From Candidatus Omnitrophota bacterium (GTDB taxonomy: Bacteria; Omnitrophota; Gorgyraeia; Gygaellales; Profunditerraquicolaceae), in assembly GCA_028712375.1 (NCBI GenBank), contig JAQTQG010000001.1, positions 110,126 to 174,125 of the forward strand: a stretch of 64,000 nt of DNA, given 5' to 3'. The notes beneath the pieces were generated by a model. The model saw nothing but the letters and a program-made list of their open reading frames with translations, was not told where the DNA came from and did not search any database. The translations under genes and the position numbers were made by a program. Shown piece after piece: positions 18,769-34,635 of the stretch (the first letter of the stretch is position 1; each line of letters opens with the position of its first letter).

Positions 18769-19734
18769 GTGTTAAGTATGGATTACTTTTTTATTATCGC
18801 GGTAGCATTTATCATTGTATTTTTAATTACTCCGAATATCCGTTATGCGGCTTTAAAATTTTATGTGATTGATAAGGTTGGGCACCGTAAAATCCATAAA
18901 AAGCTGGTAACCAAGCTTGGTGGATTGGCAATTTATTTAGGTTTTTTAGGCGGCATATTTACTCTGGTGGTTTTTGATTTATTATTTTTTAAAATCAATT
19001 TTTATCCACTAACCAGCCTATTAATTGCTTCTTCGTTGATGTTGATTCTGGGTATCTATGATGATTTCCAGGGCAGCGGTGCTTGGATAAAGTTTAGTAT
19101 TCAAGTAATCGTTTCACTTTTAGTTATAAAATCGGGCTTTATATTAGAGAGTGTTTTTATCCCCGGCTTCATCGATCTGAAGCTTGGGATATTTAGTATT
19201 CCGGTGACTTTATTCTGGCTGGTCGGAATTACTAATGCCGCCAATCTTATCGATGGCTTGGATGGTTTGGCTGCCGGTATAATTGGCATTGCTTTATCTT
19301 TCATTGCTATTTTTGGTTTAATTTTAAATGACAACTTTATTATTTGTATTGCTTTGGCTTTATCTGCGGCGAGCCTTAGCTTTTTAAAATATAATTTTTT
19401 TCCGGCAAAAATATTCATGGGGGATACGGGGAGCTTGTTCTTAGGTTTGGTTATTGCTTGCCTGGCAATATACAGGCCATCCACACATTCAGGAAATCCA
19501 TATTTTATTCCTACTGTGATAGTCTTTTTTCTGCCCATATTAGACACGGCTCTTGCTATGGCAAGAAGGTTACTTAGAAAGCAAAATATATTTTCAGGCG
19601 ATTCTTCGCATATACATCATTATTTCCTGAAGCGTGGTTTTAGTCAGGCACAGACAGTGATGAGGTTTTATTTGATGACTTTTGTGCTGGGAGTGATGGC
19701 TTTATTTGTGTTATTTATGTCGATTCCTAGATGA
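18769..19734 (+). CDS. wecA: MraY/WecA family polyprenyl-phosphate N-acetylhexosamine-1-phosphate transferase (initiating transferase)
   Basis: 321 aa polytopic membrane protein. NAANLIDGLDGLAAG and MGDTGS motifs. Confidence 0.85.
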   Translation: MLSMDYFFIIAVAFIIVFLITPNIRYAALKFYVIDKVGHRKIHKKLVTKLGGLAIYLGFLGGIFTLVVFDLLFFKINFYPLTSLLIASSLMLILGIYDDFQGSGAWIKFSIQVIVSLLVIKSGFILESVFIPGFIDLKLGIFSIPVTLFWLVGITNAANLIDGLDGLAAGIIGIALSFIAIFGLILNDNFIICIALALSAASLSFLKYNFFPAKIFMGDTGSLFLGLVIACLAIYRPSTHSGNPYFIPTVIVFFLPILDTALAMARRLLRKQNIFSGDSSHIHHYFLKRGFSQAQTVMRFYLMTFVLGVMALFVLFMSIPR

Positions 19735-19762
19735 CCGGTTTAAAAGGTATGGAAAGCTGAAT

Positions 19763-21025
19763 ATGGATAAGAATAAAATTATAAAATATTGCGATAATGC
19801 AATAATGGTTTTTTTGTGTTTGTCAATTTTTTGCCTTCCTTTTTCAAAGGCGGCCCTGGAAAGCTTTCTTTGGTCAGCGATAGTAATCTTTGTTGCTAAG
19901 AGGATCCTGGGTTATCGGGGCAGTTGTTTTCGGGGGATGTTCCCCCAGACCCCGCTAAATAAGGTTCTGGGTATATTTTGTGCGGTTAATGTATTGTCAG
20001 TAATCTTTAGCGTCAATTTAGGATTATCACTGCGGGGTTTATTAGGCAAAGAATTTAAGTTCTTGGCTATATTTTTTATATTAACCGAGATTATTAATAG
20101 TAAAGAGCGCTTGCGTAACATTCTTATTGCAATCGTTGCTTCAGCAGCGTTGATTATCGCGGATGCGTGGGTACAATATTTTAGAGGGTTTGATTTTTTA
20201 AGAAGTTATCAGTATTCCCGCCTTACTGCTTCTTTTTCTGCGGCAAACGGATTGGCTGCCTGGTTAGTTATGGTTATTCCTTTGGTGACTGGTGTTTTTC
20301 TTTGGGTAAAAGTTATATACAGAAAGCTAAGGATTTCATTATTGGTAATGATTTTTCTTTTGTTTATTTGTTTGCTATTAACTTATTCCCGCGGTGCATG
20401 GCTAGGAATAATGTTGGCAGGAATTTTTATGAGTTTTTATATTTTAAAGAACTCTGATGCAAAAGCAAAAATCCGTTACTTAAGTTTTATTATTTGTTTA
20501 ATAATAGTATTTTTATTGACTTCAAAATTACTGAACATTAGTATGCGTAAGGTGGATAAAGTTAATTTTGATTCTGGGCAGACAGTTGGGGAACGCATAA
20601 AATCAATTGTTAATATAAATAGAGGGGCCAGCCTGGTTAGGCTTAATCTTTGGAAAGAAGCTTTAATGATTATCCGGGATTATCCTTTGACCGGCTGTGG
20701 AGTGAATACTTACTCAATTGTGGCCCGTAGTTACAAAGTTTCTGAAAGCGGCGGCATATATCCGCATAATTCATTTCTTCAGAAAGCTGCAGAAACAGGT
20801 TTATTAGGTTTATTTGTTTTTCTCTGGCTTATCGTTCAATTTTTTTGGGTAAGTTTCCAGAGCTTGAAACAAAATAAAAACATGCTGGTACTCGGGTTGT
20901 TATCAGGAATTTTAGCGTTTTTGGTGCAGGCTTTTTTCGATAACCACTTATATTCTTTACAGCTTGTGGTTTTGTTCTGGTTTATTTTAGGTTTAACGAT
21001 TGCGGTAATTAATCTGGAAACTTAA
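19763..21025 (+). CDS. O-antigen ligase/polymerase family membrane protein (Wzy/WaaL-like)
   Basis: About 420 aa from the ATG at 19763 (the track ORF at 19706 overlaps wecA). Many TM helices and a large loop with YSRGAWLG-type segment typical of the Wzy_C domain. Confidence 0.55.
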   Translation: MDKNKIIKYCDNAIMVFLCLSIFCLPFSKAALESFLWSAIVIFVAKRILGYRGSCFRGMFPQTPLNKVLGIFCAVNVLSVIFSVNLGLSLRGLLGKEFKFLAIFFILTEIINSKERLRNILIAIVASAALIIADAWVQYFRGFDFLRSYQYSRLTASFSAANGLAAWLVMVIPLVTGVFLWVKVIYRKLRISLLVMIFLLFICLLLTYSRGAWLGIMLAGIFMSFYILKNSDAKAKIRYLSFIICLIIVFLLTSKLLNISMRKVDKVNFDSGQTVGERIKSIVNINRGASLVRLNLWKEALMIIRDYPLTGCGVNTYSIVARSYKVSESGGIYPHNSFLQKAAETGLLGLFVFLWLIVQFFWVSFQSLKQNKNMLVLGLLSGILAFLVQAFFDNHLYSLQLVVLFWFILGLTIAVINLET

Positions 21026-21051: not shown

Positions 21052-21828
21052 ATGAAGGTAGTGATTCTGGCAGGCGGCAGAGGCACAAGGATTAGTGAAG
21101 AAACAGAAGTTTTGCCCAAGCCCATGGTGGAGATCGGCGGCAAGCCGATGATCTGGCATATTATGAAGCTGTATTCTCATTATGGTTTTAATGATTTTAT
21201 CATCTGCCTGGGATACCGTGGGTACATGATTAAAGAGTATTTCTCCCATTATTTTATGCATATGAGCGATTTAACCATTGATTTATCTAAAAATAAAACC
21301 AGGATTCATACTACGGTTTCTGAGCCCTGGAAGATTACTTTGGTGGATACGGGTTTAGAAACAATGACTGGCAGCAGGCTTAAAAGGGTGAAGAAATATA
21401 TTGGTAAGCAGCCTTTTCTATTGACTTATGGCGATGGACTGGCGGATATTAATATGAAAAAACTAGTTGAATTCCATAAGAAAAATAAAAGGCTGGCTAC
21501 TTTAACTGCGATACAGAATCTCGGCCGGTTTGGGGTTTTAGATATTGTTTCTGGCAGTAAAGTTTCTTCTTTTCTGGAGAAACCCAAAGGTGAAGGAGGT
21601 TGGATCAACGGCGGTTTTTTTGTCCTTGAGCCGGAGATATTTAATTATATAGATAATGATGATACCGTGGTTTGGGAGAATGAACCTTTGGAAAATCTGG
21701 CAAAGCAAGGCAAGCTAAGCGCTTATAAGCATGCTGGTTTTTGGGGTTGTATGGATACCTTAAGAGATAAGATGAATTTTGAAAAAATCTGGCAATCCGG
21801 AAATGCTCCTTGGAAGGCTTGGAAGTGA
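21052..21828 (+). CDS. rfbF: Glucose-1-phosphate cytidylyltransferase
   Basis: 258 aa. MKVVILAGGRGTRISEET..PKPMVEIGGKPMIWHIM matches the RfbF/DdhA N-terminus almost residue for residue. GGGGAGG RBS upstream. Confidence 0.85.
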   Translation: MKVVILAGGRGTRISEETEVLPKPMVEIGGKPMIWHIMKLYSHYGFNDFIICLGYRGYMIKEYFSHYFMHMSDLTIDLSKNKTRIHTTVSEPWKITLVDTGLETMTGSRLKRVKKYIGKQPFLLTYGDGLADINMKKLVEFHKKNKRLATLTAIQNLGRFGVLDIVSGSKVSSFLEKPKGEGGWINGGFFVLEPEIFNYIDNDDTVVWENEPLENLAKQGKLSAYKHAGFWGCMDTLRDKMNFEKIWQSGNAPWKAWK

Positions 21829-21833
21829 CCGCT

Positions 21834-22817
21834 ATGAATAATAAATTCTGGAAAAATAAAGTCGTTCTGGTTACGGGTTTTGAAGGTTTCTTAGGTTCCA
21901 ATCTAACTAAGTCGATTATTTCTTCCGGGGCAAAAGTTATCGGTTTGGATATTAAAACTTTTCGTAAACAAACTATTTTTTGCGCTCAAGATTATGAAAA
22001 AATAATTGTTTATAAGGGTAGCGTTGATAACCGCAGTTTAATCAGGGATATTTTCCGTAAGCATCCAATTGACATAATTTTTCATTTAGCTGCGGAAGCG
22101 ATTGTCAGCCGGAGCTACCAAAATCCACTTAAAGCTTTTGAATCTAACATTACCGGAACCTGGGAAATTTTGGAGGCTGTCCGCAAATACGGGAAAGTGC
22201 AGGCGGTTGTCGTGGCTTCCAGTGATAAGGCTTACGGCAGCCATAAAAAACTTCCTTATCGTGAAGACGCTCCTTTGATCGCTAACCATCCTTATGATGT
22301 TTCTAAAAGCTGCGCGGATTTGATCGCTAATACTTATTTGCATACTTATGATTTACCGGTGGCTATCACCCGCTGCGGTAATATCTACGGGCCGGGTGAT
22401 TTTAATTTTAGCCGGCTTATACCTGATGCAATGAGAAACTTAGCTTTAAATAAACAACTAAAGATACGCAGTGATGGAAAATTTGTGCGCGATTATGTTT
22501 ATGTTGAGGATATCGTTGCCGGTTATCTGCAAATAGCTGAGTTGTTAGCCAGGCGCAAGATTCCCGGTGATGCCTTTAATTTAAGCGATGAGCAGCCATT
22601 GACCGTGATTGGATTATTAAAAGAGATAAACCTGGCTTTGCCTGGAGCTAAGAAGTTAAAATATAAAATTATGAATACCGCCCGCTATGAAATTAAAAAA
22701 CAGTATCTTTCTTCAACGAAAGCCCGCCGCATTCTAGGTTGGAAGCCCAACTATACTTTAAAGGAAGGGCTGCGTAAAACGGGTCAGTGGTACGTGCAAT
22801 ATTTTAAACAGATATGA
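21834..22817 (+). CDS. rfbG: CDP-glucose 4,6-dehydratase
   Basis: N-terminus from ATG 21834 (MNNKFWKNKVVLVTGFEGFLGS) parallels DdhB (FWQGKRVFVTGHTGFKGSWL). YDVSK catalytic motif. Directly downstream of rfbF. Confidence 0.65.
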   Translation: MNNKFWKNKVVLVTGFEGFLGSNLTKSIISSGAKVIGLDIKTFRKQTIFCAQDYEKIIVYKGSVDNRSLIRDIFRKHPIDIIFHLAAEAIVSRSYQNPLKAFESNITGTWEILEAVRKYGKVQAVVVASSDKAYGSHKKLPYREDAPLIANHPYDVSKSCADLIANTYLHTYDLPVAITRCGNIYGPGDFNFSRLIPDAMRNLALNKQLKIRSDGKFVRDYVYVEDIVAGYLQIAELLARRKIPGDAFNLSDEQPLTVIGLLKEINLALPGAKKLKYKIMNTARYEIKKQYLSSTKARRILGWKPNYTLKEGLRKTGQWYVQYFKQI

Positions 22818-23554
22818 AACTATATTTTTTAGGAACAAGCGGTTGGTATGATACGGCTTTAGGCAATACGCTTTCGGTTTTACTGGATACAAAACAGGCT
22901 TATATTGTTTTTGACGCTGGAGGGGGTTTTTATAAGCTGGATAGATATGTAAAAGAGGAAAAACCGGTGATTGTCTTGCTTAGCCATTTCCATTTGGACC
23001 ATATTAGCGGTTTACATGCTTTAGCGAAATTTAATTTTACTCAAGGCATAAAAATATTGGGCCCTCAAGGCATAAAGAAGCTATTTAACCTTTTAATTAA
23101 TGCCCCTTATTCTATGCCGGTTAATAAACTGAAGACTAAATTAGTGGTGGGGGAATTTTTGAATAGCTTAAAATTGCCGGTAGATATTAAATATAAGGAA
23201 CTTCGCCATGTTGATGCCTGTTATGGGTATCGGGTCTCGACGGATAATAAAACCGTAGTTTTTTGCACAGATACCGGTCCTTGCAGAAATTTAAATGCTT
23301 TGGCGCAAGGAGCGGATGTTTTAATTGCGGAATCATCTTTACCTGCCGGCAGGATAGATAACCGTTGGCCGCATCTTAACCCTGAGCAGGCGGCTGTAGC
23401 TGCTAAGCAGGCAGGGGTTAAGAAATTGATTTTGACGCATTTTGATTCCGGTGTTTATACTAAATTAAAGGATAGGGCACAAGCTGGTAGAAGCGCTAGA
23501 AAAGTATTTAAAAATACTTTGGTTAGCTATGATGGCTTGGAGCTGGCTATATAA
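22814..23554 (+). CDS. MBL-fold metallo-hydrolase (RNase Z/PhnP-like phosphodiesterase fold)
   Basis: 246 aa. HFHLDHISGL metal-binding motif. C-terminal LTHFD. Confidence 0.6.
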   Translation: MKLYFLGTSGWYDTALGNTLSVLLDTKQAYIVFDAGGGFYKLDRYVKEEKPVIVLLSHFHLDHISGLHALAKFNFTQGIKILGPQGIKKLFNLLINAPYSMPVNKLKTKLVVGEFLNSLKLPVDIKYKELRHVDACYGYRVSTDNKTVVFCTDTGPCRNLNALAQGADVLIAESSLPAGRIDNRWPHLNPEQAAVAAKQAGVKKLILTHFDSGVYTKLKDRAQAGRSARKVFKNTLVSYDGLELAI

Positions 23555-23555
23555 G

Positions 23556-24533
23556 ATGAATCTTACCGCGATTTTAAAAAATAAACGGTGTTTTAAGTTG
23601 GTTTGCGGTGCCGGCAATGAGGACGCTGTGGAAGTAGAGAAATTGGTGGCGGTTTATGCTAAAGCCGGCGCTAATTATTTTGATCTTTCAGCCAGAGAAG
23701 ATATTGTCCGCGCTGCTAAGCGGGGTTTGGAGAGGGTAATTCCGAAAGGTAAGCCAACTAACTATTTTTTTAATGTCAGCGTTGGAATCGCCGGTGATCC
23801 GCATGTGCGCAAGGCTTTAATTACCGGGCAAAAATGTAAAGCCTGCGGCCTTTGTCAAAAAGTCTGCCAGCAAAAAGCGATTTTACCCGAAGGAAATAAA
23901 TATGCCGTGATTAAAACACGCTGTATTGGTTGTGGAGCGTGTGCTGAAGTTTGCCCGGTAGCAGCAATTTCGTTTACCACAGAGAATAAAGATTTAAATT
24001 TAGTGTTGCCTCCGTTAGTTAAGCTGGGGCTGGATTCCTTGGAGTTGCACGCTGTAACGGATGATGAAGAAACTGCTTATGCTCAGTGGCTGGCGATGAA
24101 TAAGATCTTTCCCGGTATTTTAAGCCTTTGCCTTGACCGTTCTCATTTGGGAGATAAGCAATTGATCGCACGTATTAAGCGTTTTATCGGCAGCAGGAAT
24201 GATTTTACTACAATAATTCAAGCTGATGGCGCGCCGATGAGCGGAGGGGATGATCGCTGCAATACTACTTTGCAGGCTTTAGCTACTGCGGATATTGTAA
24301 ATAAAGCCAAACTGCCGGTTTGGTTGCTTATTTCCGGAGGTACAAATAGTAAGACTGCTAAGCTGTCCAGATTATTTGAAATTAATGCCCAAGGTGTGGC
24401 GATTGGTTCGTTTGCCCGTAAGATTATCAGGAAATATATTGACCGGAGTGATTTTCTGGAAAATAAAAAAGTATTTAATCAGGCCTGCAAGATCGCTAAA
24501 CAGCTGGTTGATAAATCTTTAAAGTATCTATGA
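23556..24533 (+). CDS. Uncharacterised protein with two 4Fe-4S ferredoxin-type cluster motifs inserted in a TIM-barrel-like scaffold
   Basis: Two CxxCxxCxxxCP motifs (CKACGLCQKVC and CIGCGACAEVCP). No recognisable flavin or NAD motif. Family not identified. Confidence 0.45.
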   Translation: MNLTAILKNKRCFKLVCGAGNEDAVEVEKLVAVYAKAGANYFDLSAREDIVRAAKRGLERVIPKGKPTNYFFNVSVGIAGDPHVRKALITGQKCKACGLCQKVCQQKAILPEGNKYAVIKTRCIGCGACAEVCPVAAISFTTENKDLNLVLPPLVKLGLDSLELHAVTDDEETAYAQWLAMNKIFPGILSLCLDRSHLGDKQLIARIKRFIGSRNDFTTIIQADGAPMSGGDDRCNTTLQALATADIVNKAKLPVWLLISGGTNSKTAKLSRLFEINAQGVAIGSFARKIIRKYIDRSDFLENKKVFNQACKIAKQLVDKSLKYL

Positions 24534-25285
24534 TCAGCTTGTCTTCACCTTCCTGGAAGATTGAATCAATTGAGGCTGTCCTTTTTGATAAGGACGGCAC
24601 ATTAATCGACAGCCATATATATTGGGGCAGGATCATTCAAAAAAGAAGCCGGGCGCTGATTAAGATGTTGAACCTTAAAGATGAAGTGCATCCTGTTCTT
24701 TGCCAGAAAATGGGGTTTTCCCTGGAAAGGAAGATTTTGTTGCCTGAGGGTCCGATCGCCCTGGTCAGCCGCGAAAAAGTAATTGCAATACTTCTGGATT
24801 TTTTAATCAAGCAGGGCGTAGCGGTTACTTTTGGCCAGATAGACAGCTTATTTATAGAAGTCCACTCTGATTTTTTAAATGAGATTAATAGCTATATAAA
24901 AATATTGCCGGGTGTCGAAGAGTTTCTGAAAAAAATCAAGGATAAAAAAATTAAGACAGCGGTAGTGACTACTGATAGCATTAAGAATACCCGGGAGATA
25001 GTGAAATTCCTGAATATCGACAAATATTTCGATGTGCTTTTAGGTAAAGAAGCAACGCCCTTACCTAAAATAAGTGGTGAGCCCGCGTTGATTGCGCTAA
25101 GGCAGTTAGACCTAGAGCCTGATTTGGCTATCGCCATTGGTGATTCTGCGATGGATATTACGATGGCTAAGCAAGCGCATTTAAAGGCGGCAGTTGGGGT
25201 GGCTTTAGGGCAGGTGCCTTTCGAAGCATTAAAAAAAGAAACTGCCTTTGTTGTTAAGGGGTATGATGAATTAAGCATAAATTAA
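24530..25285 (+). CDS. HAD-superfamily hydrolase (subfamily IA phosphatase-like)
   Basis: 251 aa. Motif I VLFDKDGTL and C-terminal IGDSAMDI motif. Confidence 0.65.
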   Translation: MISLSSPSWKIESIEAVLFDKDGTLIDSHIYWGRIIQKRSRALIKMLNLKDEVHPVLCQKMGFSLERKILLPEGPIALVSREKVIAILLDFLIKQGVAVTFGQIDSLFIEVHSDFLNEINSYIKILPGVEEFLKKIKDKKIKTAVVTTDSIKNTREIVKFLNIDKYFDVLLGKEATPLPKISGEPALIALRQLDLEPDLAIAIGDSAMDITMAKQAHLKAAVGVALGQVPFEALKKETAFVVKGYDELSIN

Positions 25286-25292
25286 TTTACAA

Positions 25293-27014
25293 ATGAAAAT
25301 TAAAATCATTGATTGCACAATCCGGGATGGCGGGCATTTAAACAAGTGGCAGTTTCAGGACCGCTTAGTAAGATCCGCTTATTTTGCGGCGCAAAAAGGC
25401 CGGGTGGATTATTTTGAGATTGGTTATAAAAATGATCCGGCTAAAAGCGGTTTGGGCGCTTATGGGTATTGTGATGAACAGCAGATAAGCGGGCTTTTTA
25501 AATGTTCTGCAGAATGTAAGCTGCTTTTTATGCTGGATGCAGGTAAATATACCGGATATGAAATTCCCGATTGCAAGGAAGGTAAAACCCCTTTTTCAGG
25601 AGTAAGAATTGCCGCTTACCCTTATGAGGCCGGTATTGCAATTGATTTGGTTGAGAAGATGCATAAAAAAGGCTATGAAGTTTTTCTTAACCTGATGGCC
25701 AGCAGTGAATGGACGGATAAAGATTTGGCAGTGTTAAAGAGTTGGAAGCATAAAGATGCGCTTAAGGCGGTTTATTTTGCGGATAGTTTCGGCGCATATG
25801 GCCCGGCTGAAATATCTGCGCTTATTAAAAAATTAAAAAAAATCGGGTTTAAGCATATCGGATTTCATGCTCATAATAATTTACAGATGGCATTTGCTAA
25901 TACGATGCATGCGATTAAAGAAGGGGCTACTTACGTGGATGCTTCTATTTATGGTATGGGCAGAGGCGCGGGAAATTTACCGGTTGAAATTCTTTTGAGC
26001 TATCTGAGTAAGCATAAAAATAATGAGTATAATGTTGTTCCTTATTTGGATGTGATCCAGAGGTTTTTTGTCCGGCTTTTCGAGCAATACCGCTGGGGGT
26101 ATTCGCTAAATTCCCTTTTAGGCGGGATAAGCAACGTGCATCCTTATTATATCGATGAACTTTTTCATTCACATAATTATACGATTGAGGAAATTTGGAA
26201 TATTTTAGAAGTGATTAAAGAAAAATGCCCGATTTCTTTCTCGGGGGAGAAGCTAAAGCGCGCGCTGGGGGAAAGGTTTTATATCCCGAATGTTACGCAA
26301 ACCCGCCGCACTATTGCGGAAATCGAGAAAGACCTGAAAATTATCCCGGCCAAAGATAGTTTTTTATTGCGTAGGCTTGCGTTTAAAAATAAACATAAGG
26401 GCAGAAGTTTTTTAATTATTGCCAATGGTCCTTCAATTGTCAAGTATAAGGATAAAATTAATGAGTTGATCAGTAAAAAGAATTTAATTACTATTGGCTG
26501 TAATTTTCTAAATGAAATTTATGTTCCAGATTACCATTTGTTTGTAAATAAAAGAAGGTTTCTTAAGTATGTTTCTTCTGTATTAAAAAAGAGCATATTG
26601 CTGGTGCCTACTTTTTTCGGGAAACGCCTGGTTACGGAAAATTATAGCGGAGATTATGAATTTATTCAGATTGCTGCGGAACATAATCTTAAGGCCTTGC
26701 CGGTAAAAGGAATCCGCCAGCAGGCTGCATATCTTAACGTGGCTACCGCTGCCATCCTGGCTGCTTTTCAGATGGGGGCGCGTGAAATTATGGCGGTGGG
26801 AATGGATGGATATCAAAGCCAGGAGGCCGGAAAAGTGGTTTATTTTTATAATGAAAAAGATGTCCCCGATGACAAAATTACTGCCTCTGTGCGTTATGAG
26901 AACATGGCAATTGAATTAAAAAGAGTGGCGGATTTTTTACATGAGCAGGGCATATCGTTTTCCATTATTACTCCTACATCTCATAAGAGATATTATCAGG
27001 ATATTTTAGTTTAA
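25293..27014 (+). CDS. Fusion protein: N-terminal DmpG-like class II (DRE-TIM) pyruvate aldolase plus C-terminal DUF115/Maf-like (MptE-like) domain
   Basis: 573 aa. N-terminal IIDCTIRDGGH and FHAHNNLQMAFANT..GMGRGAGN match the 4-hydroxy-2-oxovalerate aldolase (DmpG/MhpE) metal-binding signatures. C-terminal FLIIANGPS..ITIGCNF resembles the DUF115 domain of motility-associated-factor putative glycosyltransferases. Confidence 0.5.
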   Translation: MKIKIIDCTIRDGGHLNKWQFQDRLVRSAYFAAQKGRVDYFEIGYKNDPAKSGLGAYGYCDEQQISGLFKCSAECKLLFMLDAGKYTGYEIPDCKEGKTPFSGVRIAAYPYEAGIAIDLVEKMHKKGYEVFLNLMASSEWTDKDLAVLKSWKHKDALKAVYFADSFGAYGPAEISALIKKLKKIGFKHIGFHAHNNLQMAFANTMHAIKEGATYVDASIYGMGRGAGNLPVEILLSYLSKHKNNEYNVVPYLDVIQRFFVRLFEQYRWGYSLNSLLGGISNVHPYYIDELFHSHNYTIEEIWNILEVIKEKCPISFSGEKLKRALGERFYIPNVTQTRRTIAEIEKDLKIIPAKDSFLLRRLAFKNKHKGRSFLIIANGPSIVKYKDKINELISKKNLITIGCNFLNEIYVPDYHLFVNKRRFLKYVSSVLKKSILLVPTFFGKRLVTENYSGDYEFIQIAAEHNLKALPVKGIRQQAAYLNVATAAILAAFQMGAREIMAVGMDGYQSQEAGKVVYFYNEKDVPDDKITASVRYENMAIELKRVADFLHEQGISFSIITPTSHKRYYQDILV

Positions 27015-27032
27015 AATAAGGAGATTAAATAG

Positions 27033-27797
27033 ATGAAAAACATCAAACAAACTTTAAAAGAGCGCCTGCAGGCTGGAAAAAATGTTTTGGGGACCTGGTG
27101 TCTTTTGCCTTCTGAGGCGGTAGTGAATGTTATTGCTAAAGCCGGGCTTGATTTTGTGTTGATTGATTTAGAGCATGGGGCAATCAGCCCGGAATGTGCT
27201 TTACGGATGGTGATGGCAGCGCAGGCTGATGGGTCGGAAGCGGTAATCCGGGTTTCTTGCAATGATGAATCGGAAGTGGCTAAAGCGCTAGATATCGGAA
27301 GTAATGGAGTGATCGTACCGCATATTGAAACACCCCGGGAATGCAGAGATGCTTTGTCGTTTATTAAGTATCCTCCTTCAGGGGTACGGGGGTTTTCTCC
27401 TTATGTCAGGTCGGGCGGTTATGCCCAGACTAAAGGGTATGTTTCCAAAGAAAACCAGCGTATTCTTTCAGGTATCATTATCGAAGGCTTAGAAGGTATT
27501 GTCAATATTGATTCAATTATTGCCGATACCCGCCTGGATTTAGTTTATATCGGGGCTTATGATATCTCGGTAGCATTGGGTGTGCCCGGAGAAATTAGTA
27601 ATCCGAAGGTAGTAAAAATTATTAAGGAATGTGTAAAAAAGATTCGGGCCCATAAAAAAGCTGCCGGGGCTCTGTTTCATTCAGAGCAGGAGTTAAGGTT
27701 ATTTAAGTCTATCGGCATACAGTTTTTATGTTATCGGGTTGATTCAGATATTCTTTACAGTGCATTCAATACCATCGTAAATAATTTTGGGAGATAA
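27033..27797 (+). CDS. HpcH/HpaI family class II pyruvate-dependent aldolase
   Basis: 254 aa. Colinear with 2-keto-3-deoxy-acid aldolases (VLIDLEHG, GVIVPHIET, GVRGFSP). AAGGAG RBS. Confidence 0.75.
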   Translation: MKNIKQTLKERLQAGKNVLGTWCLLPSEAVVNVIAKAGLDFVLIDLEHGAISPECALRMVMAAQADGSEAVIRVSCNDESEVAKALDIGSNGVIVPHIETPRECRDALSFIKYPPSGVRGFSPYVRSGGYAQTKGYVSKENQRILSGIIIEGLEGIVNIDSIIADTRLDLVYIGAYDISVALGVPGEISNPKVVKIIKECVKKIRAHKKAAGALFHSEQELRLFKSIGIQFLCYRVDSDILYSAFNTIVNNFGR

Positions 27798-27805
27798 GTT
27801 ATAAG

Positions 27806-29611
27806 ATGATTAGACTTTCGGAGTATGTGATTAAATTTCTGGCTAAAGAAAAGATTAAGCATGTTTTTATGGTTTCCGGAGGCGGCGGGATGTTTTTAAT
27901 CGATTCTTTAGGCCGTAGCAAGGATATTCAGTATGTTTGTAATCACCATGAGCAGGCTTGCGCGATGAGCGCAGAAGGTTATCAGCGGGTTACCGGTAAT
28001 CTGGGCGCGGCTTTAGTTACTACCGGCCCGGCAGGGACTAATGTGATTACGGGGTTAATGTGTTCATGGAACGATTCTATTCCGGTAATTATTATTTCCG
28101 GGCAGGTAGCTTCAAGATTTTTAATTGGAAATACAGGTTTGCGCCAAAGGGGTACGCACGAGGCTAATATTACTAAGATTGTTGAATCCATAACAAAATA
28201 TGCGGTTACGGTAACTGATGCCGGCATGATTCGCTATCATTTGGAAAAAGCGCTATATTTGGCGCGCCATGGCCGGCCAGGACCGGTATGGCTGGATATA
28301 CCTCTGGATATTCAGGCGGCAATGATTAATGAAGATACGCTAGCGCATTTTTCTGCGGAAAAAGAAAATTTTATTGGTGCCTCTGAAACTGATGAAACAA
28401 AAATTAAAGAAATCTGCGGGCTTTTGTCAGCATCTAAACGCCCGGTGATTATTGCGGGAAACGGAATCCGGATTGCCGGCATGCAGGAAGAGTTTATCCG
28501 CTTTATTGAAACTTATCGTATTCCCGTAGTGACTACTAAGCTGGGTTTTGACCTTATTTATGATGAGCATGAACTTTTGGCCGGCAGGATAGGAACCTAT
28601 GGCCAGCGGGCCGGAAATTTTGCGGTGCAAAACGCGGATTTTGTTTTAGTACTCGGTTCGCGCCTGGCGTTTACCACTATTGGCTATCAAACAGAATGGT
28701 TTGCCCGCGGGGCAAAAAAGGTAGTTGTGGATATTGATCAGCAACAGCTGAAATATCCGAATATAAAAATTGATATATCTGTCCGGGCCAATCTTAAAGA
28801 TTTTTTTCCTATCTTGAACAAAGCGCTTAAAGCTAAAGCTCTATCTGTCGGCGATTGGATTAGCTGCTGCCAAAATTGGCGTAAGAAATACCCGGCGGTA
28901 TTACCGCAATGGCGCAAAGAAAAAAAATATGTTAATCCTTATTATTTTTTTGAAGCGCTTTCTGAAAAGCTGGGCCATGACGATATAGTAATTACGGATC
29001 AAGGGGCTACTTTTTACTGCTCAACTCCGGCATTTAAATTAAAAAAAGGCCAACGCCTGTTTACTAACGGGGGTTTTTCCCCGATGGGGTTTGGGCTTCC
29101 CGCGGCAATCGGGGCATGTTTTGCTAATAATAAAAAACGGGTTATTTGTGTGCATGGTGATGGTGGGCTGGAATTAAATATTCAGGAGTTGCAGACAATT
29201 GTGCATTATAAATTACCGGTCAAGCTTTTTGTATTTAATAATCAGGGGTATTTGAGTATAAAACATACGCAAAACGCCTACTTTAATGGTTTTTTTGTGG
29301 GTTCTGACCCATCAAGCGGAGTAAGTTGCCCGGATACGGTTAAAATTGCCCGGGCTTACGGCATAGCTTCTTTAAGTATTAAAAATCATAAACAAATGCA
29401 TGTTCAGATTAGAAAAGCATTAAAGGCTAAAGGAGCGATGATTATCGATGTAACATTGCATCCGATGCAGCCATTTGCTCCCCGGGTTATTTCGGAGCGT
29501 AAATCAAGCGGGGTAATGGTATCTAAGCCCCTAGAAGATATGTACCCTTTTTTAAACCGGAAAGAGTTTTTATCCAATATGATTGTTGCTCCTGTTGAGG
29601 ATAAAAATTAA
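27806..29611 (+). CDS. Thiamine diphosphate-dependent enzyme of the acetolactate synthase large-subunit family (YerE-like candidate branched-chain sugar synthase)
   Basis: 601 aa. TPP N-terminal Pyr domain (HEQACAMSAEGY), central domain, and C-terminal PP domain with the GDGG motif (VHGDGGLELNIQEL). Confidence 0.75.
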   Translation: MIRLSEYVIKFLAKEKIKHVFMVSGGGGMFLIDSLGRSKDIQYVCNHHEQACAMSAEGYQRVTGNLGAALVTTGPAGTNVITGLMCSWNDSIPVIIISGQVASRFLIGNTGLRQRGTHEANITKIVESITKYAVTVTDAGMIRYHLEKALYLARHGRPGPVWLDIPLDIQAAMINEDTLAHFSAEKENFIGASETDETKIKEICGLLSASKRPVIIAGNGIRIAGMQEEFIRFIETYRIPVVTTKLGFDLIYDEHELLAGRIGTYGQRAGNFAVQNADFVLVLGSRLAFTTIGYQTEWFARGAKKVVVDIDQQQLKYPNIKIDISVRANLKDFFPILNKALKAKALSVGDWISCCQNWRKKYPAVLPQWRKEKKYVNPYYFFEALSEKLGHDDIVITDQGATFYCSTPAFKLKKGQRLFTNGGFSPMGFGLPAAIGACFANNKKRVICVHGDGGLELNIQELQTIVHYKLPVKLFVFNNQGYLSIKHTQNAYFNGFFVGSDPSSGVSCPDTVKIARAYGIASLSIKNHKQMHVQIRKALKAKGAMIIDVTLHPMQPFAPRVISERKSSGVMVSKPLEDMYPFLNRKEFLSNMIVAPVEDKN

Positions 29612-29653
29612 ATATTTCGCATTCTTTTTTGGTAATTAAAATTAAGAGGAATC

Positions 29654-30703
29654 ATGCATTTAATTGTTAAGGAAGACTTAGAATTCATAACCGCAACTGG
29701 TATCCATTGGGATAAGCTGGAAGGCAGGAATATCCTGGTTACCGGAGCCAATGGCTTTTTGCCCGCATATATGATTGAAACAATTTTGTTTTTAAATGAA
29801 CATCGATTTAAAAAGAAAGCTAAAATTTTTGCTTTGGCACGCAATAAGGAGAGGGTCCAAAAGAGGTTTTCCGGTTACCGCGGAAATAAAAATATTGTTT
29901 TTATTATTCAAGATGTTTGCGCTCCGCTTAAAATTCATAAAAAAATGGATTTTATTATTCATGCTGCCAGCCAGGCTAGCCCAAAGTTTTATGGTTCGGA
30001 TCCGGCAGGGACTATTTCGGCTAATACGCTTGGCACAGCAAATCTTTTAGCTTTAGCCGCTAAACATAAAAGCCAGGGGTTTCTGTTCTTTAGCAGTGGC
30101 GAAGTATACGGGGAGGTAGCTGTTGACCAGGTTCCTATTAGAGAAGATACTTATGGCTTAGTGGATCCAATGCTTTTGCGTTCTTGTTATGCAGAAGGTA
30201 AGCGTGCCGGTGAAAATATGTGTGTTTCTTGGAGCCATCAATATGGAATACCGGTAAAAATCATCCGCCCTTTTCATACCTATGGGCCGGGAATGCGGCT
30301 GGATGATGGAAGGGTGTTTGCGGATTTTGTCTGCGATGTTGTGGCAGGCAGGGATATTATAATGAAAAGCGACGGCAGCGCAGTGAGGGCCTTTTGTTAT
30401 CTGGCTGACGCAGTTGCCGGGTTTTTTACGGTACTTTTGGAAGGCAGTTCTGCGCAAGCTTATAATGTTGGAAATGATGAGGGGATTAGCATAGCCGGCC
30501 TGGCTAAGATATTGGTTGATTTGCGCCCGGAAAAACATTTAAAGGTTATTCAGAGGGAAAGTGATTGCATCGGCGGGTATATAAAAAGCCGGATACCGGT
30601 GAGCGTGCCGGATACCACTAAGATCAGGCGGTTAGGTTGGAAACCGTTTTATTCCATAAAAGAAGGGTTTGGGCGTACGGTAAGGAGCTTTGAAAGTGAG
30701 TAA
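29654..30703 (+). CDS. NAD(P)-dependent epimerase/dehydratase family reductase (YerF-like candidate)
   Basis: 349 aa. VTGANGFL Rossmann motif. YAEGK catalytic motif. Confidence 0.6.
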   Translation: MHLIVKEDLEFITATGIHWDKLEGRNILVTGANGFLPAYMIETILFLNEHRFKKKAKIFALARNKERVQKRFSGYRGNKNIVFIIQDVCAPLKIHKKMDFIIHAASQASPKFYGSDPAGTISANTLGTANLLALAAKHKSQGFLFFSSGEVYGEVAVDQVPIREDTYGLVDPMLLRSCYAEGKRAGENMCVSWSHQYGIPVKIIRPFHTYGPGMRLDDGRVFADFVCDVVAGRDIIMKSDGSAVRAFCYLADAVAGFFTVLLEGSSAQAYNVGNDEGISIAGLAKILVDLRPEKHLKVIQRESDCIGGYIKSRIPVSVPDTTKIRRLGWKPFYSIKEGFGRTVRSFESE

Positions 30704-31619
30704 GTTAGTAGAAATTGAAAAACAATATAAAACCGGCTGCGTTGGCAAAGAAACCTACATAAACTTAATGCATAAACGCCACCTTATGCTTGAGGATTAT
30801 CCGAAGTTGATTAAGAATAAAAATGTTGCTGCCATTGAAATTAGCCAAGGTAAGATTATCTTAAAGACAAAAGATGGTGTTAGCTTATTCTGTGATTTTT
30901 TAGATAAACGGCATATATCTATGGAGATTTTAAATTTTGGTAATTATGAATCTGCCGAACTACAAATGATTAAGCGTTTTTTAAAAAAAGACAGCGTGAT
31001 ATTGGATATTGGCGCAAATATCGGATGGTATTCGATTAATCTTTCCAGAAGTGTTCCGCGGGGCAGGATAATTGCTTTTGAACCAATTCCTAAAACCTAC
31101 AATTGCTTAATTAAGAATGTTGCTTTGAACCAGTTGCCTAATATCAAGGCATATAATATCGGATTATTCAATAAATCAGGCCGCTTTAATTTTTATTATA
31201 ACCGTTCCTACACCGGAGCGACATCTTTGAAGGACATTATTCATAAGCACGATACGGTCTTAATTAAATGCCGGGTGGAAAAATTAGATGATTTTTTGAA
31301 AAAAATAAAGATTGGGCAGGTAGATTTTATTAAATGTGATGCGGAGGGTGCTGAAAAATTTGTTATTGAAGGCGGGTTAAACTTAATTAAAAAGTATAAA
31401 CCGGTTATTTTTGTGGAATTATTAAGAAAGTGGGCGGCTAAATTTGACTATCATCCGAATAGCGTAATTAGCCTTCTTAAACAGATAGGGTACGAATGCT
31501 ACGTAATTAATAAGGCAAAACTTAAGAAAATTAGAGAAATCACGGAAACTACGCAGCAAACTAATTTTTATTTTTTACCTGTTTCTAAGTATTCTAAATT
31601 ATTAAGCAGGTTAACCTGA
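30696..31619 (+). CDS. FkbM-family methyltransferase
   Basis: LDIGANIGWYS motif of the FkbM family. The track start is TTG at 30690. GTG at 30696 is better spaced from the TAAGGAG RBS. Confidence 0.6.
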   Translation: MSKLVEIEKQYKTGCVGKETYINLMHKRHLMLEDYPKLIKNKNVAAIEISQGKIILKTKDGVSLFCDFLDKRHISMEILNFGNYESAELQMIKRFLKKDSVILDIGANIGWYSINLSRSVPRGRIIAFEPIPKTYNCLIKNVALNQLPNIKAYNIGLFNKSGRFNFYYNRSYTGATSLKDIIHKHDTVLIKCRVEKLDDFLKKIKIGQVDFIKCDAEGAEKFVIEGGLNLIKKYKPVIFVELLRKWAAKFDYHPNSVISLLKQIGYECYVINKAKLKKIREITETTQQTNFYFLPVSKYSKLLSRLT

Positions 31620-32932
31620 TGGCTATGGCGAAAACACTAAGAAAAAAAATCCAGGCAGATGTAAAACGTTTATGCAGATTATCTTTTGCAAAAGCAAAGT
31701 TTGTTCCCGGCCAGACACCGGTTAGTTATGCCGGCAGGGTTTATGATGAAAAAGAAATGTTTAATTTAGTTGATGCTTCCCTGGATTTTTGGTTAACTGC
31801 CGGCAGATACGCTGCAGAGTTTGAAAAAAGGCTCGCAGAGTTCATTAAAGTAAAATATTGCCTTTTAACTAATTCCGGTTCTTCGGCGAATTTGCTGGCG
31901 ATTTCCGCCTTAACTTCACCCTTGTTAAAAGAACGGCAACTGAAAAAAGGCGATGAAGTTATTACAACTGCTTGCGGTTTTCCCACTACGCTCAATCCTA
32001 TTCTACAAAATAATCTTGTGCCTGTATTTATCGATGTGGAGCTGGGGACATATAACATACGGGCGGAGTTGGTTGAGCGGGCGATTACTAAAAAGACCAA
32101 AGCCATATTTGTCCCGCACACTTTAGGCAATCCGGCAAACATTGCATTGATTCTAAAAATAGCTAAAAAATATAATCTTTGGTTTATAGAAGATAATTGC
32201 GATGCTTTGGGGTCAATTTATAAAGGCAGGCTTACCGGTTCATTCGGCGATATCGCTACTTGCAGTTTTTATCCTGCGCACCACATTACGATGGGTGAAG
32301 GAGGGGCAGTCTTAACCAGTAACCCGCTCTTAAAAAGAATAATTATGTCTTTTCGCGACTGGGGAAGGGATTGTTATTGCGGCCCCGGCCTGGATAATAC
32401 CTGTCGGAAAAGATTTTCTCAAAAATTCGGTAATCTTCCGCAGGGTTATGATCATAAATATGTTTATTCGCATATTGGTTATAATTTAAAAGTAACGGAT
32501 ATGCAGGCGGCAGTAGGAGTGGCACAGTTGGATAAGTTAGGAGGTTTTATTAAGTCCAGGAGGGAGAATTTTTCATTTCTCAAAAAATCCCTTAAAGGTT
32601 ATCAAAAGTATTTGGTTTTACCGGAGCCTTCAGAAGAATCAATGCCCAGCTGGTTTGGTTTTCCTATTTTAGTTAAGGAAAACGCCCCTTTTACCAGGAA
32701 TGGTCTGGTAACTTATCTGGAGCAGCGTAAAATTGCTACGCGTATGCTTTTTGGAGGGAATTTAACCAAGCAGCCGGCATATGAAGATACCAGATACAGG
32801 ATTTTCGGATCGTTGCAGCATACTGATATGGTGATGAACAATCTTTTCTGGATTGGAGTCTACCCCGGGCTTAAGCTTGAACAGTTAACCTATATGAAAA
32901 ATACAATTATTGGCTTCCTAGAAAAAATATGA
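31619..32932 (+). CDS. rfbH: CDP-6-deoxy-D-xylo-4-hexulose-3-dehydrase (E1; RfbH/DdhC family)
   Basis: 437 aa, DegT fold. The PLP lysine position reads YPAHHITMGEGG (His instead of Lys), as in E1. It also has DCYCGPGLDNTC, a CxCx7C iron-sulfur motif characteristic of E1. Confidence 0.8.
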   Translation: MAMAKTLRKKIQADVKRLCRLSFAKAKFVPGQTPVSYAGRVYDEKEMFNLVDASLDFWLTAGRYAAEFEKRLAEFIKVKYCLLTNSGSSANLLAISALTSPLLKERQLKKGDEVITTACGFPTTLNPILQNNLVPVFIDVELGTYNIRAELVERAITKKTKAIFVPHTLGNPANIALILKIAKKYNLWFIEDNCDALGSIYKGRLTGSFGDIATCSFYPAHHITMGEGGAVLTSNPLLKRIIMSFRDWGRDCYCGPGLDNTCRKRFSQKFGNLPQGYDHKYVYSHIGYNLKVTDMQAAVGVAQLDKLGGFIKSRRENFSFLKKSLKGYQKYLVLPEPSEESMPSWFGFPILVKENAPFTRNGLVTYLEQRKIATRMLFGGNLTKQPAYEDTRYRIFGSLQHTDMVMNNLFWIGVYPGLKLEQLTYMKNTIIGFLEKI

Positions 32933-33627
32933 AACTTACAATTCTGATATTTTGTTTTAATGAAAAATCCACTATTTCCAGCGTTATTGAAGATGCTAAG
33001 CAAATTACCCTGGATAAAGAAATAATTGTTATCGATAATTTCTCTACTGACGGCACCAGGGAAATATTAAAAACTTATAGTGAAGATAAAGCATTAAAAA
33101 TAATATTGCATGATAAAAACATGGGAGCCGGCTATTCTGTGCGCGAAGGGATTGCTCTTGCCCAAGGTGATTATTTGTATGCGCCGGGAGCGGACCTGGA
33201 ATATAAGATGGATGATGTATATAAGATGGTGGAGAAGCTGGAAAAAGAAAAGCTGGATGTAGTTTTTGGGTCAAGGTTATCCGGCCGAAAAGAAGTTTCC
33301 ACTATTGAGCTGATCAAGGAAAGGCCTTACTGGCTGGGAACAATTATCGCTACGTTTTTAATAAACCTCTTTTATGGCAGGAAGTTCACGGATATAATCG
33401 CCACTAAATTGATCAAGGCTGACATTTTAAAAAACCTGGGCTGCCAAGCGAGTGATCCGTCTTTTGAATTTGAGTTGGTCAGCCGGTTATGTAAAAAGAA
33501 ATATAAAATCGGCGAACTGCCTGTTTGGTATAAGGCGCGTTCTCATAGAGAAGGCAAAACTATTAAAGCCATTCATATGCTTCCGGCGTTGTGGGCGATA
33601 TTCAGGATTAAGTTTCTGGTTAGATAA
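32929..33627 (+). CDS. Glycosyltransferase family 2
   Basis: 232 aa. LTILIFCFNE..IIVIDNFSTDGT N-terminal GT2 signature. Confidence 0.65.
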   Translation: MKLTILIFCFNEKSTISSVIEDAKQITLDKEIIVIDNFSTDGTREILKTYSEDKALKIILHDKNMGAGYSVREGIALAQGDYLYAPGADLEYKMDDVYKMVEKLEKEKLDVVFGSRLSGRKEVSTIELIKERPYWLGTIIATFLINLFYGRKFTDIIATKLIKADILKNLGCQASDPSFEFELVSRLCKKKYKIGELPVWYKARSHREGKTIKAIHMLPALWAIFRIKFLVR

Positions 33628-33651: not shown

Positions 33652-34635
33652 ATGATTTTGACTAAAAAAAGAAAAGCGAAACTGTTTAAATTGTTCAGGG
33701 CAAGGCAGCTTCCTTATCTGCCTTATAGCCTGGGGATTGATCCGGGGAATATCTGTAATCTTAAATGCCCGCTATGCCCTACAGGTTTGGGGGATTCGGG
33801 CGCTCAGAAGAGTTTTTTAGAGTTTAGCCTATTTAAGCTAGTATTTGATCAGCTTAAAGAAAGTCTATCCGAAATAAATATGTTTAATTGGGGTGAGCCG
33901 CTTTTGAATAAAGATTTAACGAAAATGATCCGATATGCCAAAGAGGTAAAACCGCTGATTTATGTTATCACCAGCACTAATTTAAATATAAATAATGATA
34001 ATTTATTAGAAGAAGTAATGAATTCCGGCATTGATAAGATTATTGTCTCTTGCGACGGGACAACCAAAGAATCTTACGGAAAGTACCGTGTCGGAGGAGA
34101 TTTTGGGCTGGTAATGAGGAATCTGCGTTTTTTGGCTGAGAAAAACAGCAAATTAGCGAGGAAAGTTTTGATTGTCTGGAATTTTATTGTGTTTAAGCAT
34201 AATGAGCATGAGGTAGAAATTGTTAAAAAGATGTCCAAAGACATAGGAGTGGACTGCAATATCGGATTAATGAGAACTTCTTTGAAAGATGAAATACTTA
34301 AGCCTCATCACGAGGGCATAGCTAAAGACATGGACCTGATACCGGATAATCCTATTTATAGCGCGTATGATAAATGCAGCCTTACAGTTAAAAAAGTATT
34401 AAAGACTTGCAAAAAGCCGTGGCAGTCAATTGCGGTTAACTCTAATGGTTTAGTTTTTCCTTGTTGCGCGGTTTATGAAGAAAAATATAGTTTTGGTGAT
34501 GTAAAGAAGGATTCTATTAAAGATATCTGGAACAACCGTAAGTTTGTTTTAGCCCGGCAGGAGATTTTGAACAAAAAACGCCCTGCATGCACAATTTGCG
34601 GGACATGCCGGAATAACGGGTTTATGCATATGTAA
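33652..34635 (+). CDS. Radical SAM protein with a C-terminal Cys-rich (SPASM/twitch-like) domain
   Basis: 327 aa. CNLKCPLC radical SAM motif near the N-terminus. C-terminal PCCAVYEE...CTICGTC cysteine cluster. Confidence 0.7.
   Translation: MILTKKRKAKLFKLFRARQLPYLPYSLGIDPGNICNLKCPLCPTGLGDSGAQKSFLEFSLFKLVFDQLKESLSEINMFNWGEPLLNKDLTKMIRYAKEVKPLIYVITSTNLNINNDNLLEEVMNSGIDKIIVSCDGTTKESYGKYRVGGDFGLVMRNLRFLAEKNSKLARKVLIVWNFIVFKHNEHEVEIVKKMSKDIGVDCNIGLMRTSLKDEILKPHHEGIAKDMDLIPDNPIYSAYDKCSLTVKKVLKTCKKPWQSIAVNSNGLVFPCCAVYEEKYSFGDVKKDSIKDIWNNRKFVLARQEILNKKRPACTICGTCRNNGFMHM

Follow-up and report, generated by a model that had tools for sequence, protein, structure and literature searches.

What do five adjacent genes contribute to a sugar pathway in whose midst they lie? 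The question is raised by positions 22814-27797 of a 64,000-nucleotide stretch of DNA from a Candidatus Omnitrophota bacterium (contig JAQTQG010000001.1; the whole stretch is referred to as the window), where genes for a metallo-beta-lactamase (MBL)-fold hydrolase, an iron-sulfur (Fe-S) protein, a haloacid dehalogenase (HAD) phosphatase, an aldolase fused to a DUF115-like domain and a second aldolase are flanked by ddh genes of cytidine diphosphate (CDP)-sugar synthesis. A first-pass annotation had read them as an insert that builds a ulosonic acid by pyruvate aldol addition and transfers it. Our analysis favours a different answer: with a probability of about 0.6, the operon 21052-33627, of which these genes are part, would make a CDP-activated acyl-branched 3,6-dideoxyhexose of the yersiniose, erwiniose or caryophyllose class. 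This assignment is drawn by analogy: every gene class of a published scheme for such sugars, with the exception of DdhD, is present, together with both types of aldolase.

In this scheme, which was proposed and partly demonstrated by Steitz et al. in 2022, a pyruvate aldolase yields a gamma-hydroxy-alpha-keto acid as the donor for a YerE-like enzyme (PMC9306805). The latter, a thiamine diphosphate (ThDP)-dependent enzyme, ligates the keto acid decarboxylatively to CDP-4-keto-3,6-dideoxy-D-glucose, and a YerF-like reductase finishes the branch. In the erwiniose cluster of Pectobacterium atrosepticum the DmpG/BphI-like aldolase ErwI is paired with the acetaldehyde dehydrogenase ErwJ, and ErwE rejects pyruvate and accepts 4-hydroxy-2-oxo acids; in Mycobacterium marinum the caryophyllose aldolase MMAR_2331 belongs to the aldolase/citrate-lyase (HpcH) family, and the cluster of R. 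palustris includes an S-adenosylmethionine (SAM) methyltransferase (PMC9306805). The gene combination of the window, which had been attributed to no described pathway, hence has a published counterpart in ddh clusters where a DmpG/BphI-type or HpcH-type aldolase feeds a YerE-like enzyme.

All five open reading frames (ORFs) were verified on the + strand at 22814-23554, 23529-24533, 24530-25285, 25293-27014 and 27033-27797. Their Pfam and NCBIfam domain calls bear out the domains ascribed to them by the first-pass annotation, and the catalytic motifs are intact in 5/5 ORFs (MBL, LdpA-like, HAD, fusion and HpcH). The flanks are likewise as described there, with RfbF/DdhA and a DdhB-like short-chain dehydrogenase/reductase (SDR) upstream, and a ThDP enzyme, an SDR, an FkbM gene and DdhC/E1 downstream. 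From RfbF (21052) to a family 2 glycosyltransferase (GT2; 33627) the intergenic gaps range from -19 to +42 bp, and the following genes form one tightly packed operon.

21052..21828, + strand: RfbF/DdhA glucose-1-phosphate cytidylyltransferase (TIGR02623 415.5 bits, cutoff 300; 19-bp overlap with the next gene)
21810..22817, + strand: extended SDR, DdhB-like (TIGR02622 218.5 bits, cutoff of 278 not reached; dTDP-glucose dehydratase model 198.9 bits)
22814..23554, + strand: MBL-fold hydrolase, RNase Z / PhnP / phosphodiesterase-like (Lactamase_B_2 72.5 bits; HFHLDH)
23556..24533, + strand: LdpA-like 2x[4Fe-4S] TIM-barrel protein (LdpA_C 56.3 bits)
24530..25285, + strand: HAD-IA phosphatase (PF00702 95.4 bits; DKDGT)
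25293..27014, + strand: DRE-TIM aldolase::MptE-like/DUF115 fusion (HMGL-like 78.5 bits)
27033..27797, + strand: HpcH/HpaI-family class II pyruvate aldolase (PF03328 92.9 bits)
27806..29611, + strand: ThDP-dependent carboligase, YerE-like by sequence (JanthE, 8rph, 456 bits)
29654..30703, + strand: extended SDR, proposed YerF-like ketoreductase (Epimerase family 140.3 bits)
30690..31619, + strand: FkbM-family methyltransferase (TIGR01444 110 bits)
31619..32932, + strand: DdhC/RfbH (E1), CDP-6-deoxy-L-threo-D-glycero-4-hexulose 3-dehydrase (NF011936 713.9 bits, cutoff 423)
32929..33627, + strand: small GT2, polyprenyl-phosphate sugar synthase type (GT2 97.7 bits; 4-bp overlap with E1)

As called mechanically, the ORF of the LdpA-like gene begins at 23529 and shares 26 bp with the MBL gene. 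In the database protein and in every homologue, the first codon is instead the ATG at 23556, 1 bp past the MBL stop codon; this ATG is probably the true beginning of the gene. The GC content of the five-gene block is 0.41, compared to about 0.40 around it, with a flat profile. Because of this uniform GC content and the overlapping or abutting neighbours, the five genes are regarded as part of the operon and not as an insert wedged into the ddh pathway. No tRNA, looked for as a sign of insertion, was found, and the lack of both a GC shift and a tRNA, together with the gene overlaps, rules out a recent insertion.

The constancy of these genes was assessed across the family of the fusion protein, whose members measure about 575 aa and gave 1717 hits in the database. 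For this purpose, 80 genome loci and ten Pfam-annotated contigs were fetched (labelled L001 and so forth), and the partners of the fusion were tabulated by tblastn. The close set comprises 15 independent loci with a fusion orthologue of at least 49% identity, whose hosts include Planctomycetales, Elusimicrobiales, Aquicultor, Microgenomates, Gastranaerophilales, Geobacter, a genome labelled Sphingobacterium, C. botulinum and others. The ThDP enzyme adjoins the fusion in 13/13 close loci that reach far enough; 14/15 loci have the LdpA-like gene and 9/14 have HpcH, and RfbF, the dehydratase and E1 occur together in 8. In L086 the gene order is exactly that of the window, the MBL gene excepted. 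The conserved unit consists of the LdpA-like gene, HAD, the fusion, sometimes HpcH, the ThDP enzyme and the SDR, commonly joined by RfbF, the dehydratase and E1. It differs from the five-gene block proposed by the first-pass annotation: the MBL gene is found in 2/15 close loci (in L001, with a weaker copy in L011) and is a peripheral, lineage-specific accessory, whereas no partners accompany the fusion more constantly than the ThDP enzyme and the SDR, which had been counted among the remaining ddh genes.

In Geobacter the gene set lies among core genes of lipopolysaccharide (LPS). In C. botulinum (L081/L082; GCA_011016775.1, contig SWVQ01000023.1), RfbF, an SDR, the LdpA-like gene, the fusion, HpcH, the ThDP enzyme, an SDR and E1 stand between two flagellin genes, beside a TagF-like CDP-glycerol-type transferase and a 1243-aa GT2/methyltransferase/hexapeptide protein. 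Neither HAD nor MBL is found in this island, which, in a culturable host, implies a branched deoxy-sugar on flagellin. A further variant was observed in L087 (10001-19754, Bacteroidota-like), which keeps the fusion, the ThDP enzyme, the SDR, FkbM genes and a GT2; two classical adh_short reductases replace the LdpA-like gene, and no ddh genes are nearby.

As to the acceptor sugar, RfbF scores above the equivalog cutoff and is a bona fide glucose-1-phosphate cytidylyltransferase, which makes CDP-glucose. The SDR at 21810..22817 is probably a CDP-glucose 4,6-dehydratase, a role assigned because it adjoins RfbF and co-occurs with E1. E1 matches PDB entry 3bcx with 558.9 bits, and the active-site His (YPAHH) and the cluster Cys residues are aligned.

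The match of the ThDP enzyme to JanthE, its best in the PDB, extends over the full length (E 1.6e-135), whereas acetolactate synthases reach at most 251 bits; its score against the acetohydroxyacid synthase equivalog model, 372.8, does not reach the cutoff of 538. A canonical GDG motif is present, compared to CDG in JanthE. The latter is a YerE-like ketone-accepting carboligase with a broad range of alpha-keto-acid donors (PMC12188165), and the similarity argues that the ThDP enzyme is a YerE-like carboligase as well. The SDR at 29654..30703 travels with it, being 47-55% identical in L004, L005 and L008 and following the ThDP gene in most orthologous loci, and is proposed as a candidate YerF-like side-chain ketoreductase. 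In L086 the FkbM gene is found at the equivalent place, and L085 and L087 have FkbM genes as well; the enzyme probably methylates the sugar or its branch. The small GT2 weakly matches the AglJ and PpgS models, and a GT2 gene also follows the module in L085, L087, L088 and L090, which makes it a candidate transferase for the finished CDP-sugar.

The fusion is composed of an N-terminal DRE-TIM class II pyruvate aldolase domain (about residues 1-330) and a C-terminal MptE-like/DUF115 nucleotide-binding domain (about residues 345-573). The former scores well above the Pfam gathering threshold for HMGL-like (78.5 vs 29 bits), falls into the DRE-TIM metallolyases and carries the motifs DCTIRDGGH and HAHNN. 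Of the PDB sequences, that of 3dxi, which is annotated as a 'putative aldolase' and uncharacterised, matches it best (178.6 bits, N-domain only), compared to about 75 bits for DmpG. When the AlphaFold2 model of the whole fusion (pLDDT 84) was searched with Foldseek, both 3dxi and DmpG were matched with a probability of 1.00, and only TIM-barrel matches were among the top 50. The models for 4-hydroxy-2-oxovalerate aldolase remain below cutoff (TIGR03217 109.3 bits, cutoff 286; PRK08195 125.2, cutoff 229). The fusion has no Pfam match to the DmpG_comm domain, and no DmpF-type dehydrogenase was found among the window ORFs scanned (50 ORFs, 211-53979) or in the annotated orthologous loci.

The HpcH aldolase belongs to its family by score (92.9 bits, gathering threshold 25), and the HpaI, GarL and YfaU models give about 153 bits each, below their cutoffs of 369-407. 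The protein contains DLEHG, R73, E151 and D177, which were assigned to the HpaI active site by eye from the sequence. With catalytic residues apparently kept in both aldolases, it is reasonable to assume that a 2-keto-3-deoxy acid is formed by pyruvate aldol addition, and this part of the first-pass annotation is probably right; its second part, transfer of an activated ulosonic acid through the DUF115 domain, is not supported for the window, where no cytidine monophosphate (CMP)-type cytidylyltransferase was found among the scanned ORFs. HpcH would serve as an accessory second aldolase that assists the fusion in some lineages.

The C-terminal domain of the fusion matches PF01973 (MptE-like) with 29.9-32.5 bits, under the gathering threshold of 34.6. 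The model is nevertheless matched by 14/14 tested members of the fusion family (best E 1.5e-10), and most homologues carry a precomputed PF01973 call. A profile search with this domain alone against the PDB gave no significant match. Across contexts its conservation is roughly on a par with that of the aldolase domain, be a CMP-transferase present or not. We take it for a nucleotide-binding domain and, as a guess, for a possible (pyro)phosphokinase paired with HAD on a phosphorylated intermediate; nothing was found in the literature on an MptE-like domain combined with an aldolase.

Taken together, we envisage the following route. RfbF, placed by family membership, and the adjacent putative dehydratase would provide CDP-4-keto-6-deoxyglucose, from which DdhC/E1, likewise placed by family membership, would take off O-3 to give CDP-4-keto-3,6-dideoxyglucose. 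On the donor side, the DRE-TIM aldolase of the fusion, helped by HpcH in some lineages, may join pyruvate and an aldehyde to a 4-hydroxy-2-oxo (2-keto-3-deoxy) acid; the presence of HAD suggests that the aldehyde is phosphorylated and that the phosphate is trimmed afterwards. By analogy to ErwE/ErwF, the YerE-like enzyme would then decarboxylate the keto acid and put the acyl anion on C-4 of the CDP-keto sugar, whereupon the SDR could reduce the branch carbonyl, FkbM methylate the product and the small GT2 hand the sugar on. In addition, radical SAM genes were observed beside the module, of the SPASM type in the window (33652-34635) and of the B12-binding type in L086 (17658-19349), L009 (2935-4497) and L010 (7610-9142); they hint at a further radical modification, for instance C-methylation of the sugar or the branch.

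The Fe-S protein, which had been termed unclassifiable, can be classified as LdpA-like. It scores 56.3 bits against LdpA_C (gathering threshold 22.2), with two 4Fe-4S motifs, a DUF561-like N-terminus and the ferredoxin domain inserted in the TIM barrel, which is complete and highly conserved, with many invariant polar residues. Against NF045992, the equivalog model of the LdpA clock protein, it scores 140.4 bits, far from the cutoff of 450. Because of this low score and the setting in a sugar operon of non-photosynthetic anaerobes, we assign it on sequence grounds to a paralogous, enzyme-like family and not to the clock proteins. Most likely it is a partner of the aldolase that provides the aldehyde or keto acid, or adjusts its redox state, much as ErwJ/DmpF would do for ErwI/DmpG; since no E3 gene was found, electron delivery to E1 may be an additional or an alternative role. 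To our knowledge, the LdpA-like family has so far been known only from the cyanobacterial clock-input protein, and a literature search for LdpA-like enzymes in sugar pathways found nothing. HAD, with its motif DKDGT, accompanies the fusion in 14/15 close loci, is also found in the sister clade described below and is absent from C. botulinum; it suggests a phosphorylated intermediate.

The module is not confined to the close set. In a sister clade, whose N-domain is 26-41% identical, the fusion very often directly adjoins a PF02348 cytidylyltransferase of the CMP-Kdo/CMP-NeuAc type (L009, 6493-12447; L010, 5487-14292; L017, 287-5360; also L011, L012, L015, L016, L022, L028 and many Firmicutes). 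Neither a ThDP enzyme nor E1 is nearby in these loci, and no NeuB/KdsA synthase was found in the flanks examined. LdpA-like, HAD and HpcH genes often accompany the fusion in this clade as well, and the full set of LdpA-like, HAD, fusion and HpcH genes is present in Scalindua, Bdellovibrionales and an archaeal metagenome-assembled genome. The ulosonic-acid idea of the first-pass annotation, which is not supported for the window, fits the sister clade better; there, a keto-deoxy acid could be formed by an aldolase and then CMP-activated. Nothing relevant was found in the literature on HMGL-like proteins together with a cytidylyltransferase.

A third arrangement is found in Melainabacteria/Gastranaerophilales (L019, 9040-10903; also L021, L024 and L029), where the LdpA-like gene overlaps a 302-aa aldolase-only gene that has no MptE-like domain. 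The pair stands outside any large glycan cluster and is accompanied by neither E1 nor a ThDP enzyme or cytidylyltransferase. It is this overlapping two-gene unit that ties the LdpA-like protein to the aldolase. The distribution suggests that the common product of the module is a 2-keto-3-deoxy acid used in two different ways. We put forward, tentatively and as something that may well prove wrong, that LdpA-like, the DRE-TIM aldolase (with or without the MptE-like domain) and HAD make up an unrecognised, widespread 2-keto-3-deoxy-acid module with a new Fe-S-dependent TIM-barrel enzyme. Its product would become the C-4 branch via the YerE-like enzyme in the clade of the window, and would be CMP-activated in Scalindua, Bdellovibrionales, Micrarchaeota and many Firmicutes.

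How do other explanations fare against this evidence? The LdpA-like protein might be the missing E3 (DdhD), that is, a ferredoxin-type donor to the [2Fe-2S] cluster of E1 in anaerobes that is unrelated to the aldolases. Such a role would account for E1 keeping its cluster Cys ligands while no E3-type gene is found in the scanned window or the annotated orthologous loci, for the two ferredoxin-type clusters indicated by the motifs, and for the position of the LdpA-like gene directly or nearly behind E1 in L083, L088 and L089. However, the LdpA-like gene is kept in L004, L007, L085 and L090, where no E1 lies within 10 kb, as well as in the sister clade and in the Melainabacteria pairs with an aldolase-only gene; in L087 it gives way to two classical SDRs, and a complete, conserved TIM barrel with invariant polar residues would be superfluous for a mere electron carrier. 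Because of the Melainabacteria pairs and the loci without E1, E3 activity was downgraded as the main role of the protein, and we deem it unlikely. An improbable variant reverses the order of steps: the YerE-like enzyme would first add an acetyl branch from pyruvate, and the aldolases would then extend the branch or act on the CDP-sugar, with the MptE-like domain holding CDP. An aldolase fused to a nucleotide-binding domain makes sense for a nucleotide-sugar substrate, and JanthE, the closest solved ThDP relative, accepts pyruvate (PMC12188165). Steitz et al., who raised this order as a formal alternative, rejected it for ErwE upon testing, as pyruvate is not accepted (PMC9306805); moreover, the fusion and the LdpA-like gene occur without ThDP or nucleotide-sugar genes in the sister clade and in Melainabacteria, so that the substrate is probably a small free metabolite.

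The ulosonic-acid reading, understood as a self-contained pathway of pyruvate aldol addition, dephosphorylation by HAD and transfer by the DUF115/Maf-like domain, independent of the ddh and YerE genes, draws on the two intact pyruvate aldolases with HAD, on a C-domain family that includes the Maf nonulosonic-acid transferases, and on the sister clade, where the module adjoins a CMP-Kdo/NeuAc-type cytidylyltransferase with no NeuB/KdsA nearby. For the window it seems quite improbable to us. No PF02348 cytidylyltransferase is found in the 50 scanned window ORFs or the 15 close loci, so that an activation step is lacking, and no synthase that condenses phosphoenolpyruvate (NeuB/PseI/LegI or KdsA) is encoded among the scanned ORFs. 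The ThDP enzyme is adjacent in every close locus that could be judged. The conservation of the C-domain irrespective of a CMP-transferase speaks against dependence on a CMP-sugar, and the occurrence of the same protein (about 50% identical) in LPS and flagellin contexts would be odd for an acceptor-specific transferase. The chance that a catabolic operon for the degradation of aromatics or sugar acids merely happens to lie inside the glycan locus is negligible. The best named NCBIfam matches are indeed the catabolic 4-hydroxy-2-oxovalerate aldolase, HpaI and GarL, but these scores are far under the equivalog cutoffs, and no DmpF, hydratase, dioxygenase, transporter or meta-cleavage genes occur in the loci. 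The genes are translationally coupled to glycan genes and are kept together across phyla in loci for glycans and flagellin glycosylation; this neighbourhood effectively refutes catabolism and upholds the biosynthetic, glycan-associated function that the first-pass annotation had favoured over stray aromatic degradation.

Several observations weigh against an acyl-branched dideoxyhexose as the product. The scheme of Steitz et al. works without an Fe-S protein, an MptE-like domain, HAD or MBL, and four of the five genes of the block have roles that are either inferred or not assigned. The dehydratase-like SDR stays under its equivalog cutoff (218.5 vs 278), and DdhD/E3, which canonically takes part in making the acceptor sugar, is found neither among the scanned window ORFs nor in the annotated orthologous loci. 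Judged by its sequence, the fusion has an aldolase domain that falls outside the ErwI/DmpG orthologues, and the analogy to ErwI holds at the level of the superfamily. Finally, neither RfbF nor E1 lies within 10 kb in five close loci (L004, L007, L085, L087 and L090), where a different acceptor sugar may be used or the genes for it may be located farther off. As regards novelty, the cluster type may already be catalogued among in silico surveys of YerE-like clusters; Krug et al. are said to have covered more than 200 of these in 2024.

Compared to the known clusters for acyl-branched sugars (erwiniose ErwE/F/I/J; caryophyllose MMAR_2331/2332; R. palustris and M. gastri), the window is alike in its ddh-type genes, the YerE-like carboligase, the adjacent putative NAD(P)H reductase and the class II pyruvate aldolase(s), and shares a methyltransferase with R. 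palustris; the proposed logic, by which the keto acid from an aldolase ends up as the C-4 branch, is also alike. It differs in its main aldolase, which represents a separate DRE-TIM subfamily (3dxi-like) fused to the MptE-like domain, in the lack of an ErwJ/DmpF aldehyde dehydrogenase and of DdhD/E3, and in the presence of LdpA-like, HAD and MBL. The hosts here are anaerobes that have not been cultured, and where C. botulinum is the host, flagellin takes the place of LPS or lipooligosaccharide as the target. The yersiniose A pathway of Yersinia pseudotuberculosis (DdhA-D, YerE, YerF) has RfbF/DdhA, a DdhB-like SDR, a true DdhC/E1, a YerE-like enzyme and a (here putative) reductase in common with the window; there, however, pyruvate is the donor, hence no aldolase is required, and DdhD/E3 is used.

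With DmpG-DmpF and BphI-BphJ the fusion shares the DRE-TIM fold, the metal-binding His-x-His, the Asp/Arg signature and a tightly linked partner gene, whereas the identity is about 23%, the DmpG communication domain is missing, the partner is an Fe-S TIM barrel in place of an acylating aldehyde dehydrogenase, and the setting is biosynthetic and not catabolic. The Maf flagellin nonulosonic-acid glycosyltransferases and archaeal MptE belong to the Pfam family matched by the C-domain (PF01973), and one host context, that of C. botulinum, is a flagellin island; the C-domain of the window, in contrast, scores under the gathering threshold, is fused to an aldolase and is not accompanied by CMP-sugar synthesis genes in the window. 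Cyanobacterial LdpA has LdpA_C, the two 4Fe-4S motifs and the DUF561-like N-terminus in common with the window protein, which falls below the equivalog score.

Acyl-branched sugars are rare surface antigens, and their biosynthetic logic was proposed only in 2022, from few Proteobacteria and mycobacteria. The locus type described here, which employs another aldolase family and comprises three or four enzymes of unassigned role, would widen this logic to Omnitrophota, Elusimicrobia, candidate-phyla bacteria, Geobacter and C. botulinum flagellin. Identification of the product, for which C. botulinum offers a culturable host, would predict new antigens, could give the LdpA-like family its first enzymatic function and could yield carboligation biocatalysts, the YerE-like enzyme coming with its cognate keto-acid supply. 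If the proposed module is real, the fate of its product in the sister clade would represent a NeuB/KdsA-independent pyruvate-aldolase route to ulosonic-type sugars.

A 100% match to PHS66_00655 places the window in a Candidatus Omnitrophica metagenome-assembled genome. The operon is embedded in a single-strand glycan locus that extends from position 1 to about 45.9 kb of the window and encodes, besides Wzy-like proteins and numerous enzymes of sugar modification, GT9 heptosyltransferases. Two separate Wzy_C (O-antigen ligase/polymerase-like) genes were observed, one just upstream of RfbF (19706-21025) and one at 36217-37452; they may belong to two glycan assembly systems or represent a polymerase and a ligase. 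Positions 13177-15333 encode a 718-aa fusion of a zinc-type alcohol dehydrogenase and a GFO/IDH/MocA oxidoreductase with a weak inositol 2-dehydrogenase-like match. The ORFs 1308-2222 (304 aa) and 3993-5597 (534 aa) have no Pfam match; the latter, around which the 4-5 kb region has a strongly negative AT skew, might specify a novel membrane glycosyltransferase or flippase. Immediately past the downstream end of the glycan locus, at 48761-50787, two tandem GalT/HIT-like genes (galactose-1-phosphate uridylyltransferase family, DUF4921-like) are followed by the glycolytic genes GAPDH, PGK and TIM.

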